The notes: generated by a model from the letters alone, not told the origin. A stretch of 64,000 nucleotides of DNA from an uncultured Chloroflexia bacterium (GCA_963763775.1 CAVXPZ010000003.1:807679-871678), one strand, 5' to 3'; numbered from the stretch's first letter, positions 14,973 through 62,683 are shown. Translations and numbers: made by a program.

Positions 14973-16269
14973 CTATGGCGCGAGTCGCTGGTGGCTCGGA
15001 TAGCTGTGGGAATCCCAAGGCGTTGGCTTCGACGCACCCGTCGCAGGGTCCCAGAGCACCTGCGCCGAGCGGTTGCCGTTCGCATCGGTCGTCGTCCCGA
15101 GGATCACCGAATCGTCGGGTGCCCACGCCCACGCGGAGCAACACGCCCCCTCGACATCGCCGGCGTACTGCATCTCGATGCCCGGCCCGCTGCCGTCGGC
15201 CGGGATCGCGACCATGCGGGCCCCAGCGAACCCGCTGCCATAGCCTCGGATCATCGCGAGCCGCTTGCTGTCGTTGGACCAGGCGAAGCCCGCGTTCCAG
15301 TGCTCGGACGAGTCCACGACGATGTCATGCGTGCCATCGGCGTGCATGACGTGCATCCGGGCGGAGACGTCGTCCGAGTCCTGCCACGCGTTGTAGGTCA
15401 GGAGGGTGCCATCGGGCGAGAAGACCGGACGGTTCATCGAGCCGACGGGGTCCGCCGGCACGATCGGTCGCAGATGGGATCCGTCAGGGCGAACGGCGTA
15501 GATCGCGTCGCGGTCGCCGACGTAGCGAGTCCCGACGAACGCGATCTCGTCGCCGAGTGGTGCTCGATACGACGGGTCGACGGCGATCATCCCGACGTTG
15601 ACCTGGTGGAATGCGGTCCCATCCGACCGGGCGATGAACATCGCGGGCTCCGTCGGAGCCGATACCGGCGGCGACGCGCGCTGTCCCGCCGATCAGGATC
15701 TCCATCCCGTCGGGCGAGAACGCATACGAGTCGAGGGTCAGGAATTCGCTCGGCGTGACCCGCGTGAGGCCGCTGCCGTCGGGTCCCACCACGTATAGCG
15801 ACGTGCCGCCGGAATCGGTCTTGCGGGCGAAGGCGATCTTCGTGCCGTCGAGCGACCAGCGAGGTTCCGTGTCGGTCGTGGCACCGGTCACGATGGCCGT
15901 GGTCTGGCCGGTGACCTGGTCTCCGACGTAGATGTCGCCATCCCGTTCGAACGCGATCAGGCCGTTCGCGGCCGGGCCGAATGGTGACGGCAGTCGGTGC
16001 GGCAAGGCCCCGACGACCACGATCGTGCCCACGAGGAGGGCGAGGAGGACGAGCGCCACGCCGAGGGTCCGCCACGGAAGCCCTGGGACGCGGACGCGCT
16101 CGCTTGCGATGTCTGCCATGGGAAGCCACCTTCCTGGGAACGTCCAGGCGGGCCGCTGGCGCGTGCCGGCGGTCCGGCGGACGATGTCGTCTCGGTAGGG
16201 GAGCTCCGGCTGGAGATAGAGGTCCAGCAGGAGATCGGGGAGGGCGCGTTCGATTCGATCGGTCGTCAT
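14973..16269 (-). CDS. putative anti-sigma/sensor 1: N-terminal cytoplasmic domain, TM helix, TolB-like (PD40) propeller; frameshift near 15650
   Basis: QRPAWTFPGRWLPM, TM helix, PFGPAANG, repeated WSLDG/FSPDG/WSNDS/WAPDD blades; ATGA overlap with sigma 1. Confidence 0.85.
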
Positions 16270-16829
16270 GCGACCTGCCCTCCGGTCACGGTGGCCCGGG
16301 CCGGTGTGGTCTCGGCTGCGGCCGTCGCTCGCATCGCGGCGAGTGCGTAGTGCAGCCGGGACTTCGCGGTCCCGAGCGGGATCCCCAGGGATGCGGCCAC
16401 CTCCTGCAGCGGCATCCCCAGCAGGTAGTGCATAGCGACGACCGCTCGGTGCCCCGGGTCCAGGCGTCCGAGCGCTTGGTCGACGAGGTCGCGGTCGGCG
16501 AGGGCACCGGCGATGTCCGCGCCGGACGGCATGTCGATCGGGGTGAGCTCGACCTCGATCGCGCGCCGCCGTCGCCGGCGGAGGAGGTCGAGGCAGGAGT
16601 TGACGGTCAGCTTGTGGAGCCAGCCGTCGAATCGGTCAGGGTCACGAAGGCCCGGCAGGTCTCGCCAGGCCCGGATGAGGGCCTCCTGGACCGCATCGCG
16701 CGCGAGCTCGGGGTCCCGGAGGATGAGGCGAGCGGCCGCGTCCAGCCGCGCGAGGCGCAGGTCGACGAGATCGGCGAAGGCGTCATGATCGCCTCGCTTC
16801 GCTCGTTCGACGCGGTCTCGCTGGTCCAC
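16266..16829 (-). CDS. ECF RNA polymerase sigma factor 1
   Basis: Region 2 ARDAVQEALIRAW..RFDGWL and region 4 EVAASLGIPLGTAKSRLHYA; GTG start. Confidence 0.95.
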   Translation of the reverse strand: MDQRDRVERAKRGDHDAFADLVDLRLARLDAAARLILRDPELARDAVQEALIRAWRDLPGLRDPDRFDGWLHKLTVNSCLDLLRRRRRRAIEVELTPIDMPSGADIAGALADRDLVDQALGRLDPGHRAVVAMHYLLGMPLQEVAASLGIPLGTAKSRLHYALAAMRATAAAETTPARATVTGGQVA

Positions 16830-16875
16830 GGTCGCCTCGGTCTTCGGCACGGCTCGTGGTGGTCGTGCTCGAAGG

Positions 16876-16905
16876 GTATGGCGCCGCCGTCGCGCGAAAG
16901 GTTCA
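16876..16905 (-). promoter_or_regulatory. ECF-type promoter of cassette 1
   Basis: TGAACC-17-GCCATAC; motif shared by all nine cassettes. Confidence 0.75.
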
Positions 16906-16936
16906 ACGGCCCGGTCGACGGGTCCACCTACCCACG

Positions 16937-17062
16937 GGCCGGGTACTCCAAGTACCCGTTTCGCGACGTCTTCCTCGTGGTCGCCCACCGGATCGACACG
17001 CGGCTGTCGGAATCGCGACTCGTCCACGCTCGGAAGTCCGGGAACCGGGACTGACCGTTGCC
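16937..17062. repeat. palindromic intergenic repeat, copy R2
   Basis: CGGGTACT-CCA-AGTACCCG ... CTCGTGG ... CCACGCTCGG ... CCGGGACTGACCGTT. Confidence 0.85.
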
Positions 17063-60711: not shown

Positions 60712-60778
60712 GCGCCTGACGATCCGTTCCCGACCGGTCTCCGCCACGGGGGCCGGTCGTTCGATTCCCAGGCCGACA

Positions 60779-60808
60779 TGAACGTTTCGCCTCGAGCCGG
60801 CTCCATAC
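60779..60808 (+). promoter_or_regulatory. ECF-type promoter of cassette 9
   Basis: TGAACG-17-TCCATAC. Confidence 0.75.
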
Positions 60809-60851
60809 TCGGTGAAGGGGCCAACCGGGCTCCACGACCCTGGGGTCGGAC

Positions 60852-61406
60852 ATGCAGGCCGAGCTCGTCGAGCGAGCGAGACGCGGGGATCAGGAAGCGT
60901 TCGCCTCGATCGCCGCCGCCTCGGTCGACCGCTGCTATGCCCTCGCGTACCGCATCCTGCGTGACCCGCATCGAGCGCAGGACGCCGCTCAGCAGGCACT
61001 GCTCGGCGCGTGGCGCGACCTGCCTCGCCTCCGTGACATCGACCGGTTCGATGCGTGGCTGTACCGCCTGGTCGTCCACGCCTGCTATGCCGAATCCCGT
61101 GGCGACCGGCGTTGGAACGCCCGCGTCCGCCTCATCTCCAACGACCTTCCCGACAGTCCCGACGTGGCGCGCTCCGTCGCTGCGCGGGACGAACTCGATG
61201 GCGCCTTCCGCGAGCTGACTCCGGAACAGCGAGCGGTGGTCGTCCTGCACCACCACCTGGGCTATCCCCTAAAGGAGATCGCGGAGATCCTGGGCATCCC
61301 CACCGGGACCGCGCGGTCCCGACTCCACTACGCGGTCCGTCAGCTGCGGACCGTGCTCGACGCGGACGATCGTCTCCCGGCGACGTCGAAGGAGCGATCC
61401 GCATGA
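60852..61406 (+). CDS. ECF RNA polymerase sigma factor 9
   Basis: AQDAAQQALLGAW and GIPTGTARSRLHYA. Confidence 0.95.
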   Translation: MQAELVERARRGDQEAFASIAAASVDRCYALAYRILRDPHRAQDAAQQALLGAWRDLPRLRDIDRFDAWLYRLVVHACYAESRGDRRWNARVRLISNDLPDSPDVARSVAARDELDGAFRELTPEQRAVVVLHHHLGYPLKEIAEILGIPTGTARSRLHYAVRQLRTVLDADDRLPATSKERSA

Positions 61407-62683
61407 CCACCTTCGATCGAGATCCCTTGTTCGACCCGCGCATCAGCGACTGGCTCCAAGACGACCCGGATCGATCGCCGGACATCGTCCTCGAGACCGT
61501 CACGGCCGCGTTCCGGTCGATCCCACAACGGCGCGCCGCGCGCGTGCCGTGGAGGTTTCCAACGATGTCCATGCCAACACGCGTCGCGGCGCTCGTCGCC
61601 GTCGGCGCCTTGGTGATCGCGGGAATGCTCGTGGTCACTGGGTCCGGGGGACGACCCGAACCGGTGCCGACGGCGCCGGCCCAGGTCGCCACGAGCGCCA
61701 GTCCGACGTCTTCTACGGTCGCCCTCGATCTTCCCGCCAGGTTCAGTTCGCCGCAGTACGGGTACACCATGGCGGTCGCACCCGACTGGGACATCACGCC
61801 GGCGAAGCTGACGTGGAGCGGGCCCGACAACAACCCTATCGACACCGACACCATCAGCTTTCCCGACGGCGGCGGGATCACTGCGGGCTCTGAAGCATTC
61901 CGCCCAGGCCAGACGTACGCGCAATGGCAGAACGAGTTCCAGCCGCCGTCGCTCATCGGTGGCTGCCATGGCACAGGGCCGGACGCTTGGCCGCCCATCC
62001 AGGTCGGCGACCACGCCGGTGGGTGGCAGCAGATGTGCGGCGGAAACGGCGAGGCGGTGGTCCAGGATGGCGGCCGCGCCTACGTCTTCACGTTCAGCCC
62101 TGGCAGCGGTATCGGGGCCGTCACCTTCGACGAGTTCAAGCAGATCCTCGGAACGGTCACGTTCGACCCGACGGCCGTCCCGTCCGCTCCACCGCCGCCC
62201 ACGTTGGGCAAGGACTTCACATCGAAGCGCTACGGATACTCGTTATCGCATCCGTCCGAGTTCACCGTCTCGCAGGCGGGGAAGGCGGTTAGCGGGTTCG
62301 TGCCGGATCCGACCGGCCCCGAGGTGGACGCCATCTCCAGCGACTCAGCCCGCCTGGTCGTCTGGTCCGACGCGCTCGCGTCTGGTCAGACGTTTGACGC
62401 TTGGGCCAAGGCCTATTGCGCGGCGCGGCGGACAGAGTGGACGCAACCGTGTGACGGCGCGCCGGCGAACTGGCGCGAGATCCCGCTGGCGTCCGGGACG
62501 GCTTATCTCATGGTCGACGGCGACTCCGCAGGAACCTATCTGCACGACGAGAGCCGGCTGTTCGTGGCCACGGCAACCCAGGGCGATCGTGCCTACGCCA
62601 TCACGATGGACGGCGACCTCGATGAAGACCTGTTCGTCGCGATCCTCGCATCGATGCAGCTCGACCCCGCATCGGCCAAGTAG
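61403..62683 (+). CDS. putative anti-sigma/sensor 9 with two PsbP-like ectodomains
   Basis: WLQDDPDRSPD..PQRR..PWRFPTM, TM helix, two F(S/T)S..YGY domains. Confidence 0.85.
   Translation: MTTFDRDPLFDPRISDWLQDDPDRSPDIVLETVTAAFRSIPQRRAARVPWRFPTMSMPTRVAALVAVGALVIAGMLVVTGSGGRPEPVPTAPAQVATSASPTSSTVALDLPARFSSPQYGYTMAVAPDWDITPAKLTWSGPDNNPIDTDTISFPDGGGITAGSEAFRPGQTYAQWQNEFQPPSLIGGCHGTGPDAWPPIQVGDHAGGWQQMCGGNGEAVVQDGGRAYVFTFSPGSGIGAVTFDEFKQILGTVTFDPTAVPSAPPPPTLGKDFTSKRYGYSLSHPSEFTVSQAGKAVSGFVPDPTGPEVDAISSDSARLVVWSDALASGQTFDAWAKAYCAARRTEWTQPCDGAPANWREIPLASGTAYLMVDGDSAGTYLHDESRLFVATATQGDRAYAITMDGDLDEDLFVAILASMQLDPASAK

Follow-up and report, generated by a model that had tools for sequence, protein, structure and literature searches.

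A family-wide in-frame internal start that probably yields a headless membrane isoform of anti-sigma factors in Limnocylindria (Chloroflexota)

Pairs of an extracytoplasmic function (ECF) sigma factor and its anti-sigma factor are textbook regulatory modules, and the anti-sigma factor is treated as a single product whose amount matches that of the sigma factor. In-frame internal starts yielding truncated isoforms have been described for several bacterial genes, including the IF2 isoforms of infB, clpB, mrcB and ArcB-C of arcB, in the accessible part of a retapamulin ribosome profiling study (bioRxiv 10.1101/520783). A candidate for such an arrangement is reported here in a stretch of 64,000 nucleotides (the window; coordinates are counted from its first letter), which is the terminal part of contig C3 of a Limnocylindria (Chloroflexota) metagenome-assembled genome (MAG) of 3.3 Mb, four contigs and 70.7% G+C (GCA_963763775.1, CAVXPZ010000003.1:807679-871678). 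The window carries nine pairs of an ECF-type sigma gene (~185-200 codons) and a co-oriented membrane anti-sigma gene, and in all nine anti-sigma genes a Shine-Dalgarno (SD) sequence and an in-frame start codon lie between the cytoplasmic head and the membrane helix. Comparative evidence suggests that each gene of this family probably also makes a shorter protein without the sigma-binding head.

The site resembles those of infB, clpB, mrcB and arcB in that an SD-like word and an ATG or GTG stand in frame at a domain boundary, so as to give an N-terminally truncated isoform of a signaling protein, and that work too drew on the conservation of SD and start in orthologs as evidence (10.1101/520783). 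Unlike arcB, the Chloroflexota host gene encodes an anti-sigma factor, whose short form would retain the anchor and sensor and lose the sigma-binding output module, which is the reverse of ArcB-C; moreover, the anti-sigma site differs from the profiled ones in that hundreds of paralogs, with ectodomains unrelated to one another, retain it, and it is described here from sequence. In layout, the pairs are similar to Tt-RpoE1/Tt-TolB of the Firmicute Thermoanaerobacter tengcongensis, where an ECF sigma factor is followed within a few bases by a short cytoplasmic segment, one helix and a TolB-like ectodomain; residues 1-39 of Tt-TolB were shown to bind sigma, and the operon is autoregulated through the promoter GTTAC-N16-CGTC (PMC3397946, accessible part). 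This likeness is one of layout and not of head sequence, and no internal start is reported in the accessible part of that paper. The proteins also resemble class I anti-sigma domains (RseA, RsiW, RslA type), being single-pass, with a head predicted to lie between sigma domains 2 and 4 and a co-transcribed, autoregulated ECF sigma factor; unlike those domains, with their regulated proteolysis, the head is only ~50 residues long and has no Pfam anti-sigma match. Sigma factors in Limnocylindria are only counted in the accessible part of PMC13212565, and the literature searched gave no account of an anti-sigma gene with an internal start, although the supplementary tables of 10.1101/520783 and PMC9094748 could hold one. 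What appears to be new is a family-wide putative internal start that would remove the output module and keep the anchor and sensor, with unusually strong comparative support.

A preliminary description of the window had listed nine SD-plus-start strings, and these were found at all nine coordinates, six on the minus strand and three on the plus strand (Table 1). Each internal ATG shares its frame with an open reading frame (ORF) whose own ATG, which overlaps the sigma stop codon, lies 50-54 codons further upstream. The proteins share a conserved head of ~50 residues (M-T-x-[DE]-R ... RQRPxW ... R), the Met, 3-20 mostly basic residues, one helix and an ectodomain, and a single 19-residue hydrophobic stretch (mean Kyte-Doolittle 2.55-3.24) starts 3-20 residues past the Met in all nine. 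The Arg codon of the site had been described as invariably AGG and uncommon, which agrees with the counts: it is AGG in 9/9 genes, and AGG accounts for 2.8% of 56,583 Arg codons counted over 1,501 confident ORFs of the genome. Likewise, the spacing between AGG and ATG, given as 9-12 nt, measures 12 nt in one gene and 9 nt in the other eight. In the same ORFs, GTG accounts for 29.8% of Val, TTG for 3.2% of Leu, GAA for 13% of Glu and GGA for 6% of Gly codons, and an SD-like word occurs at -18 to -5 of merely 2.4% of the 9,495 internal ATG codons of the genome. Because the genome is 71% G+C, the rare codons and the A/U-containing SD stand out. The 3' end of the genome's own 16S rRNA is canonical (...GGATCACCTCCTTTCT), so that GAAAGG, GGAGGT and AGGTG are perfect 5-6-base complements of its tail.

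The occurrence of the site beyond the window was examined with a search profile built from the nine heads. Seven further clear paralogs are present elsewhere in the source genome (five with AGG and ATG, one with AGG and GTG, one with AGG and TTG), and two weak or diverged paralogs have neither AGG nor a start. The profile matches all 24 other sampled genomes of the genus, a single genome having as many as 26 matches, and two families of the class, f1 (42/60 genomes) and f4 (58/66), tallies that include two unpublished genomes that contributed no sequences. In a phylum-wide search of 301 genomes, including the source genome, the head was found in 8/16 genomes of f1 and 13/15 of f4, while all other families sampled yielded, at the sensitivity of this profile, two marginal matches and nothing more. 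A sister family with genomes of 1.0-1.4 Mb gave one marginal match (E 9.6e-4) in 16 genomes and none in further samples of 7 and 3.

The source genome, the loci returned by the searches, 127 stretches cut at listed match coordinates and 80 loci picked up when GTDB species genomes were scanned by pattern were pooled and identical copies were removed. The final set, drawn from two families of the class, comprises 286 members in which the Arg column is occupied. AGG is followed three to six codons downstream by an in-frame ATG (235), GTG (29) or TTG (3) in 267 of the 286, against a genome background of 2.8% AGG among Arg codons. Eight members have a start codon without AGG, six of which retain a purine-rich SD (AGA in three, AAG-GAG, GAG-GGG giving GGGAGG, and AGC giving GGAGC), and eight have neither. 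AGG without an in-frame start is found in three, namely locus L200 and two marginal matches at E ~4e-4. In L200 (G011:C7:194401-195065), the spacer is one base shorter, the ATG is out of frame and the head ORF ends at a TGA overlapping that ATG, an arrangement of a small stand-alone head gene and a separate membrane-protein gene; as the head ORF stops at this TGA, the downstream part could be produced only from the internal start. The locus may be a naturally split version or a one-base assembly error.

The codons around the site point to selection at the RNA level. An equally conserved control, the Arg of the QR motif eight codons upstream of AGG, is encoded in 117 homologs by CGG (67), CGA (17), CGT (13) and CGC (12) and never by AGG, and since this control uses mixed codons, the fixed AGG is not explained by shared ancestry; neighboring Pro and Thr codons are also mixed in the 117 sequences. 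The codon before AGG (n=267) is GAA in 121, TGG in 79, GGA in 33, CGG in 30 and another codon in 4, and is never GAG (87% of Glu genome-wide) or GGC, GGG or GGT (94% of Gly). At the start position of AGG-bearing members, Val is GTG in 29/29 and Leu is TTG in 3/3; members with neither AGG nor a start have ACG, GTA, CTC, CCG and similar codons there. The spacer is 9 nt long in 260/267. The eight members without either element do not group together: in every case both elements are present in the three closest heads by similarity, which implies that SD and start were lost together several times. In two members, the residues have changed and the SD is preserved: L248 encodes W-E-G as TGGGAGGGG (TGG GAG GGG, with GGGAGG retained) followed by ATG, and L235 encodes W-K-E as TGGAAGGAG (TGG AAG GAG, with AAGGAG retained) followed by GTG.

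The calculated properties of the site resemble those of an initiation region. The duplex with the 16S tail of the genome averages -10.9 kcal/mol at the internal start (n=267) and -10.2 kcal/mol at the annotated starts of the same genes (n=225), compared to -3.7 kcal/mol at random in-frame positions (n=1330) and -4.0 kcal/mol at other in-frame ATG or GTG codons (n=2021). For the +1 codon, the G+C content at third codon positions (GC3) is 0.41 where 0.91 would be expected, with GCT in 30/117 and also GAT, TCT and GTT; the spacer is enriched in T-ending codons (CTT 33 vs CTC 38, ATT 9 vs ATC 10 in 117 sequences), and predicted folding in 50-nt windows is weakest at the site (-12.9 kcal/mol vs -16 to -23 kcal/mol at a distance of 30-60 nt on either side; 114 sequences). 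Taken together, the fixed rare codons, the joint losses, the SD preserved under residue change and the initiation-like pairing, folding and GC3 argue for RNA-level selection on SD and start, as the preliminary description had supposed. The site is also specific to the family within the source genome, where 15/17 sigma-adjacent family genes, and 1/12 other sigma-adjacent genes with a qualifying helix, have an in-frame start ahead of the helix that pairs at -9.3 kcal/mol or better. A natural negative control lies outside the window (contig C1, plus strand, offset 1002979): this sigma-adjacent membrane protein has the ectodomain type of genes 4 and 5 and a P-E-R-L-M motif before the helix, but with GAG CGC codons and no SD. 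A hairpin GGAAG-GUGG-CUUCC hiding the SD, conceivable in some members, was considered and rejected, GGA showing no association with CTT (8/20, vs 44/97 for GAA, counting CTC and CTT only).

Every comparative test run supports the dual-isoform proposal, and we put the probability of a functional in-frame internal start, yielding a headless membrane isoform alongside the full-length anti-sigma factor, at roughly 0.78. Several points weigh against it. The 286 members are kin, paralogs and orthologs within one class, so that the counts are not independent events, and the argument for selection on the RNA draws on the contrast with neighboring synonymous sites and on the scattered joint losses, as judged by inspecting related sequences. 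In addition, 73 of the 286 were recovered by peptide patterns, one of which includes the Met; this pattern does not appear to drive the result, because sets obtained by hidden Markov model only give the same picture (AGG and start in 16/18 for the source genome and 128/134 for the genus). Initiation at the site and the short protein are predicted from sequence comparison, a look-up of RNA runs for 15484-25346 listed none, an SD-like word within a gene can also slow elongating ribosomes, and whatever role is proposed for the short form is inferred throughout. Gene callers have started some database proteins (P0020, P0034, P0069, P0073) exactly at the internal Met, which speaks for the site, but these proteins may be artefacts of short contigs.

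The long form is under selection as well, as the head has its own SD, a start coupled to the sigma gene, conservation as protein (profile E-values down to 1e-34) and a frame that is open into the helix in 285/286 members, L200 being the exception. A head-sigma complex was predicted with an ipSAE of 0.82 (best of three controls 0.02), at least 87% contact agreement between runs and a partner pLDDT of at least 74; the ipSAE mark is reached by 58/80 solved complexes and 2/110 mismatched pairs, counts that hold roughly with the alignments of our own used here. The head is thus predicted to bind the sigma factor of its own operon, although the score shows likeness and not proof, because sigma/anti-sigma complexes have already been solved. 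The predicted interface involves head residues 9-47 and both sigma domains, so that a protein starting at residue 51-55 would lose it entirely; the expectation that the short form lacks the anti-sigma domain is therefore consistent with an interface lying wholly upstream of the Met. By annotation, the head carries none of the recognised anti-sigma domains (zf-HC2, RskA and similar): Pfam gives no match on it in 9/9 genes, and NCBIfam gives sub-threshold matches only (NF052375, E 0.0037; NF038083, E 4.9e-4). NF038083 (CU044_5270 family) had no matches in 14 control genomes and is hence uninformative on other phyla.

SD-mediated pausing ahead of membrane segments has been proposed, and a strong SD-like word at a domain boundary, 3-20 residues ahead of the helix, is what would be expected of a programmed elongation pause that stalls the ribosome for head folding, sigma capture or membrane targeting and gives no second protein. 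Such a pause has no need of a start codon, yet one is present at a fixed distance, with Val always GTG and Leu always TTG, it is lost jointly with the SD, and the +1 codon and spacer have the composition of initiation regions; besides, a ribosome held by SD pairing would be positioned at the Met codon, when no part of the helix has yet been synthesized. We consider this explanation improbable, and give no more credit to a relic of gene fusion, in which a small soluble anti-sigma gene was joined to a membrane-protein gene and the signature, now unused, was kept by inertia or protein constraint. The split of L200 exactly at the site, with an ATGA-type overlap, and the diversity of ectodomains (PD40 propeller, PsbP/LpqN-like, unknown), as modular joining predicts, speak for such a fusion, although L200 may be a one-base assembly error. 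Against a relic, nearby synonymous sites have turned over (four codons at the control Arg, mixed Pro and Thr) while AGG, the preceding GAA or GGA and the start stayed fixed in two families, and protein constraint accounts neither for codon choice nor for the SD preserved with changed residues in L248 and L235. The fusion joint that had been offered as an alternative to dual isoforms thus survives as a possible origin, in view of the split at L200, and fails as a mere fossil, which the conservation excludes.

Even less likely is that the internal site is the sole real start and the upstream 50 codons an untranslated or read-through leader of ordinary membrane proteins. It would fit the lack of Pfam recognition of the head and the database entries that begin at the internal Met; on the other hand, it conflicts with a head that is conserved as protein, begins at an ATG overlapping the sigma stop with an SD of its own (-10.2 kcal/mol), stays open into the helix and is predicted to clamp both sigma domains, and also with the T. 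tengcongensis TolB-like anti-sigma factor of the same layout, which binds sigma by its residues 1-39 (PMC3397946, accessible part). The least credible reading, for which we see hardly any chance, makes AGG a rare regulatory codon that needs the scarce tRNA-Arg(CCU), comparable to TTA and bldA in Streptomyces, with the Met kept for protein reasons. One AGG per gene at a fixed place, from a codon that serves for 2.8% of Arg, would suit such a switch, but GAA, GGA or CGG before AGG, the fixed spacing, the restriction of alternative starts to GTG and TTG and the joint loss are left unexplained, and some members retain GGAGG or AAGGAG without an in-frame AGG codon.

Under the favored reading of an internal start with two isoforms, one mRNA from an ECF-type promoter would be translated from three starts, for sigma, the coupled long anti-sigma factor and the short form. 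The first anti-sigma start would give the full-length protein, whose cytoplasmic head would hold sigma and be followed by the helix and ectodomain. The second, directly after the head, would combine an SD formed by (GAA/GGA/TGG/CGG)-AGG with a start codon, mostly ATG but in some members GTG or TTG, at the end of a U/C-rich spacer of 9 nt, and ribosomes would start there on the same mRNA. In the headless isoform, the Met and a short run of basic residues would be followed by the membrane helix and then by the ectodomain of the full-length protein. With such an N-terminus, the isoform should insert like the long form, as a signal-anchor protein with the ectodomain outside. Ectodomain would then be made in excess of sigma-bound receptor, and might itself perform an envelope job or compete for the receptor-inactivating signal or protease, which would provide negative feedback on the autoregulated operon; alternatively, the short form may enter mixed oligomers with the long form. 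A role as the module's own output or buffer (effector, or decoy for the inducing signal or protease) is favored, because the tandem pairs stand without other genes between them and the ectodomains resemble envelope-binding modules. A bolder version, in which this class-specific family consists of two-in-one genes whose headless sensor is the operon's real output or feedback element, with no separate regulon needed, is conceivable, though we would sooner bet against it.

If this is true, sensor, regulator and effector of an ECF module would be contained in two genes, a design principle not known to have been described for sigma/anti-sigma signaling. If the second start is used, the ratio of headed to headless receptor would be set at translation, which would alter models of thresholds, feedback and stoichiometry in ECF signaling and would also account for tandem sigma/anti-sigma arrays that have no obvious target genes. 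The family, with its hundreds of natural replicates including joint losses, offers an unusually clean case for comparative detection of internal starts, and annotators should be aware that either start may be called.

The nine pairs are arranged as five in tandem at 15.4-25.4 kb (minus strand), one at 52.0-54.1 kb (minus) and three in tandem at 56.3-62.7 kb (plus), and in 9/9 pairs the sigma TGA overlaps the ATG of the partner (ATGA). Both sigma factors scanned passed TIGR02937 (sigma70-ECF, NCBIfam), with 73.2 and 75.6 bits at a cut-off of 42.9. Eight of the nine were aligned and have 42-60% identity to the first; sigma 1 was read separately, and its start was placed by alignment.

Table 1. 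Sigma genes, anti-sigma genes, internal SD-plus-start sites and promoter-like motifs in the window
Feature	Position	Strand	Remarks
Internal SD + start, gene 1: GGA AGG TGG CTT CCC ATG	16117..16134 (ATG first base 16119)	-	in frame, Met = residue 51
Internal SD + start, gene 2: GAA AGG TGG CTC CCC ATG	18269..18286 (ATG 18271)	-	Met = residue 54
Internal SD + start, gene 3: GAA AGG TGG ATC CCC ATG	20265..20282 (ATG 20267)	-	Met = residue 52
Internal SD + start, gene 4: GGA AGG TGG TTC TCA ACC ATG	22343..22363 (ATG 22345)	-	12-nt spacer; Met = residue 53
Internal SD + start, gene 5: TGG AGG TCC TTT CGA ATG	24601..24618 (ATG 24603)	-	Met = residue 54
Internal SD + start, gene 6: CGG AGG ACC ATC CAC ATG	53395..53412 (ATG 53397)	-	Met = residue 52
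Internal SD + start, gene 7: TGG AGG TTC CCA ACG ATG	56972..56989 (ATG 56987)	+	Met = residue 52
Internal SD + start, gene 8: TGG AGG TTC GAC ATC ATG	59535..59552 (ATG 59550)	+	Met = residue 52
Internal SD + start, gene 9: TGG AGG TTT CCA ACG ATG	61550..61567 (ATG 61565)	+	Met = residue 55
Anti-sigma gene 1	15484..16269	-	head, transmembrane helix, PD40/TolB-like ectodomain; coding frame changes ~585 nt in
Anti-sigma gene 2, 429 aa	17141..18430	-	PD40/TolB-like ectodomain
Anti-sigma gene 3	19653..20420	-	PD40-like; coding frame changes ~630 nt in
Anti-sigma gene 4, 407 aa	21278..22501	-	ectodomain without Pfam match
Anti-sigma gene 5, 442 aa	23434..24762	-	ectodomain without Pfam match
Anti-sigma gene 6	51970..53550	-	ORF departs from coding frame ~315 nt in (frameshift or assembly error)
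Anti-sigma gene 7, 437 aa	56834..58147	+	ectodomain modelled as two PsbP/LpqN/Apa-like domains
Anti-sigma gene 8	59397..60140	+	coding frame changes ~315 nt in
Anti-sigma gene 9, 426 aa	61403..62683	+	paralog of gene 7
ECF sigma gene 1	16266..16829	-	GTG start inferred by alignment; stop overlaps anti-sigma ATG
ECF sigma gene 2, 188 aa	18427..18993	-	TIGR02937, 73.2 bits, cut-off 42.9
ECF sigma gene 3	20417..20977	-	ORF, alignment, ATGA overlap
ECF sigma gene 4	22498..23109	-	ORF, alignment, ATGA overlap
ECF sigma gene 5	24759..25346	-	ORF, alignment, ATGA overlap
ECF sigma gene 6	53547..54098	-	ORF, alignment, ATGA overlap
ECF sigma gene 7	56286..56837	+	ORF, alignment, ATGA overlap, TIGR02937
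ECF sigma gene 8, start uncertain	58798..59400	+	ORF, alignment, ATGA overlap
ECF sigma gene 9	60852..61406	+	ORF, alignment, ATGA overlap
Promoter-like motif GAACS-N19-CATA, sigma 1	16877..16904	-	upstream of sigma gene
Promoter-like motif GAACS-N19-CATA, sigma 3	21028..21055	-	upstream of sigma gene
Promoter-like motif GAACS-N19-CATA, sigma 4	23114..23141	-	upstream of sigma gene
Promoter-like motif GAACS-N19-CATA, sigma 5	25351..25379	-	upstream of sigma gene
Promoter-like motif GAACS-N19-CATA, sigma 6	54145..54172	-	upstream of sigma gene
Promoter-like motif GAACS-N19-CATA, sigma 8	58769..58797	+	upstream of sigma gene
Promoter-like motif GAACS-N19-CATA, sigma 9	60780..60807	+	upstream of sigma gene

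Among the ectodomains, a PD40/TolB-type propeller is found in three genes (PD40 above the Pfam cut-off in two and below it in one) and no Pfam match in five, and the sole Pfam match in gene 6 is a sub-threshold nSTAND1 in the frame-shifted stretch. The ectodomain of gene 7 (56987-58144, plus strand) models as two tandem PsbP/Mog1-like domains with a mean pLDDT of 86.9, and its closest matches are cyanobacterial PsbP, M. tuberculosis Apa, LpqN and the immunity protein Tsi3 (Foldseek E ~3e-4 to 2e-2); some database homologs of gene 7, of 572-593 residues, are ~140-155 residues longer. The GC3 signal shifts frame 315-630 nt after the start, inside the ectodomain, in four of the nine genes (1, 3, 6 and 8), and the remainder of the ectodomain was found in another frame by BLAST for three of these, the evidence for gene 8 being GC3 only. 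These changes may be genuine, from pseudogenes and decay, or may stem from one-base errors in the assembly of a long-read MAG, and the internal site is untouched by them. Stand-alone ectodomain genes were also sought in the source genome by BLAST, and most extra matches were out-of-frame continuations of family genes, the rest bearing other cytoplasmic heads.

An ECF-type promoter-like motif, GAACS-N18-21-CATA, has seven matches in the window compared to 0.48 expected, all of which lie upstream of sigma genes (7/9), whereas a narrower spacing of N16-18 gives one unrelated match in the window. An internal ECF promoter before the second start was considered and rejected, as the window scan, in which other promoter types were not searched for, gave no match to GAACS-N18-21-CATA inside the operons. 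Genome-wide, the motif has 38 matches, nine of them at family operons, and is too weak to define a regulon. The source genome contains 42 sigma-like ORFs in its 3.3 Mb, ~17 of which come from this one family, often in tandem arrays, with loci outside the window on contigs C1, C2 and C3. In three sigma genes, no more than 8 nt separate CATA from the GTG listed as start, and it is possible that these mRNAs are leaderless or that their starts are mis-set.

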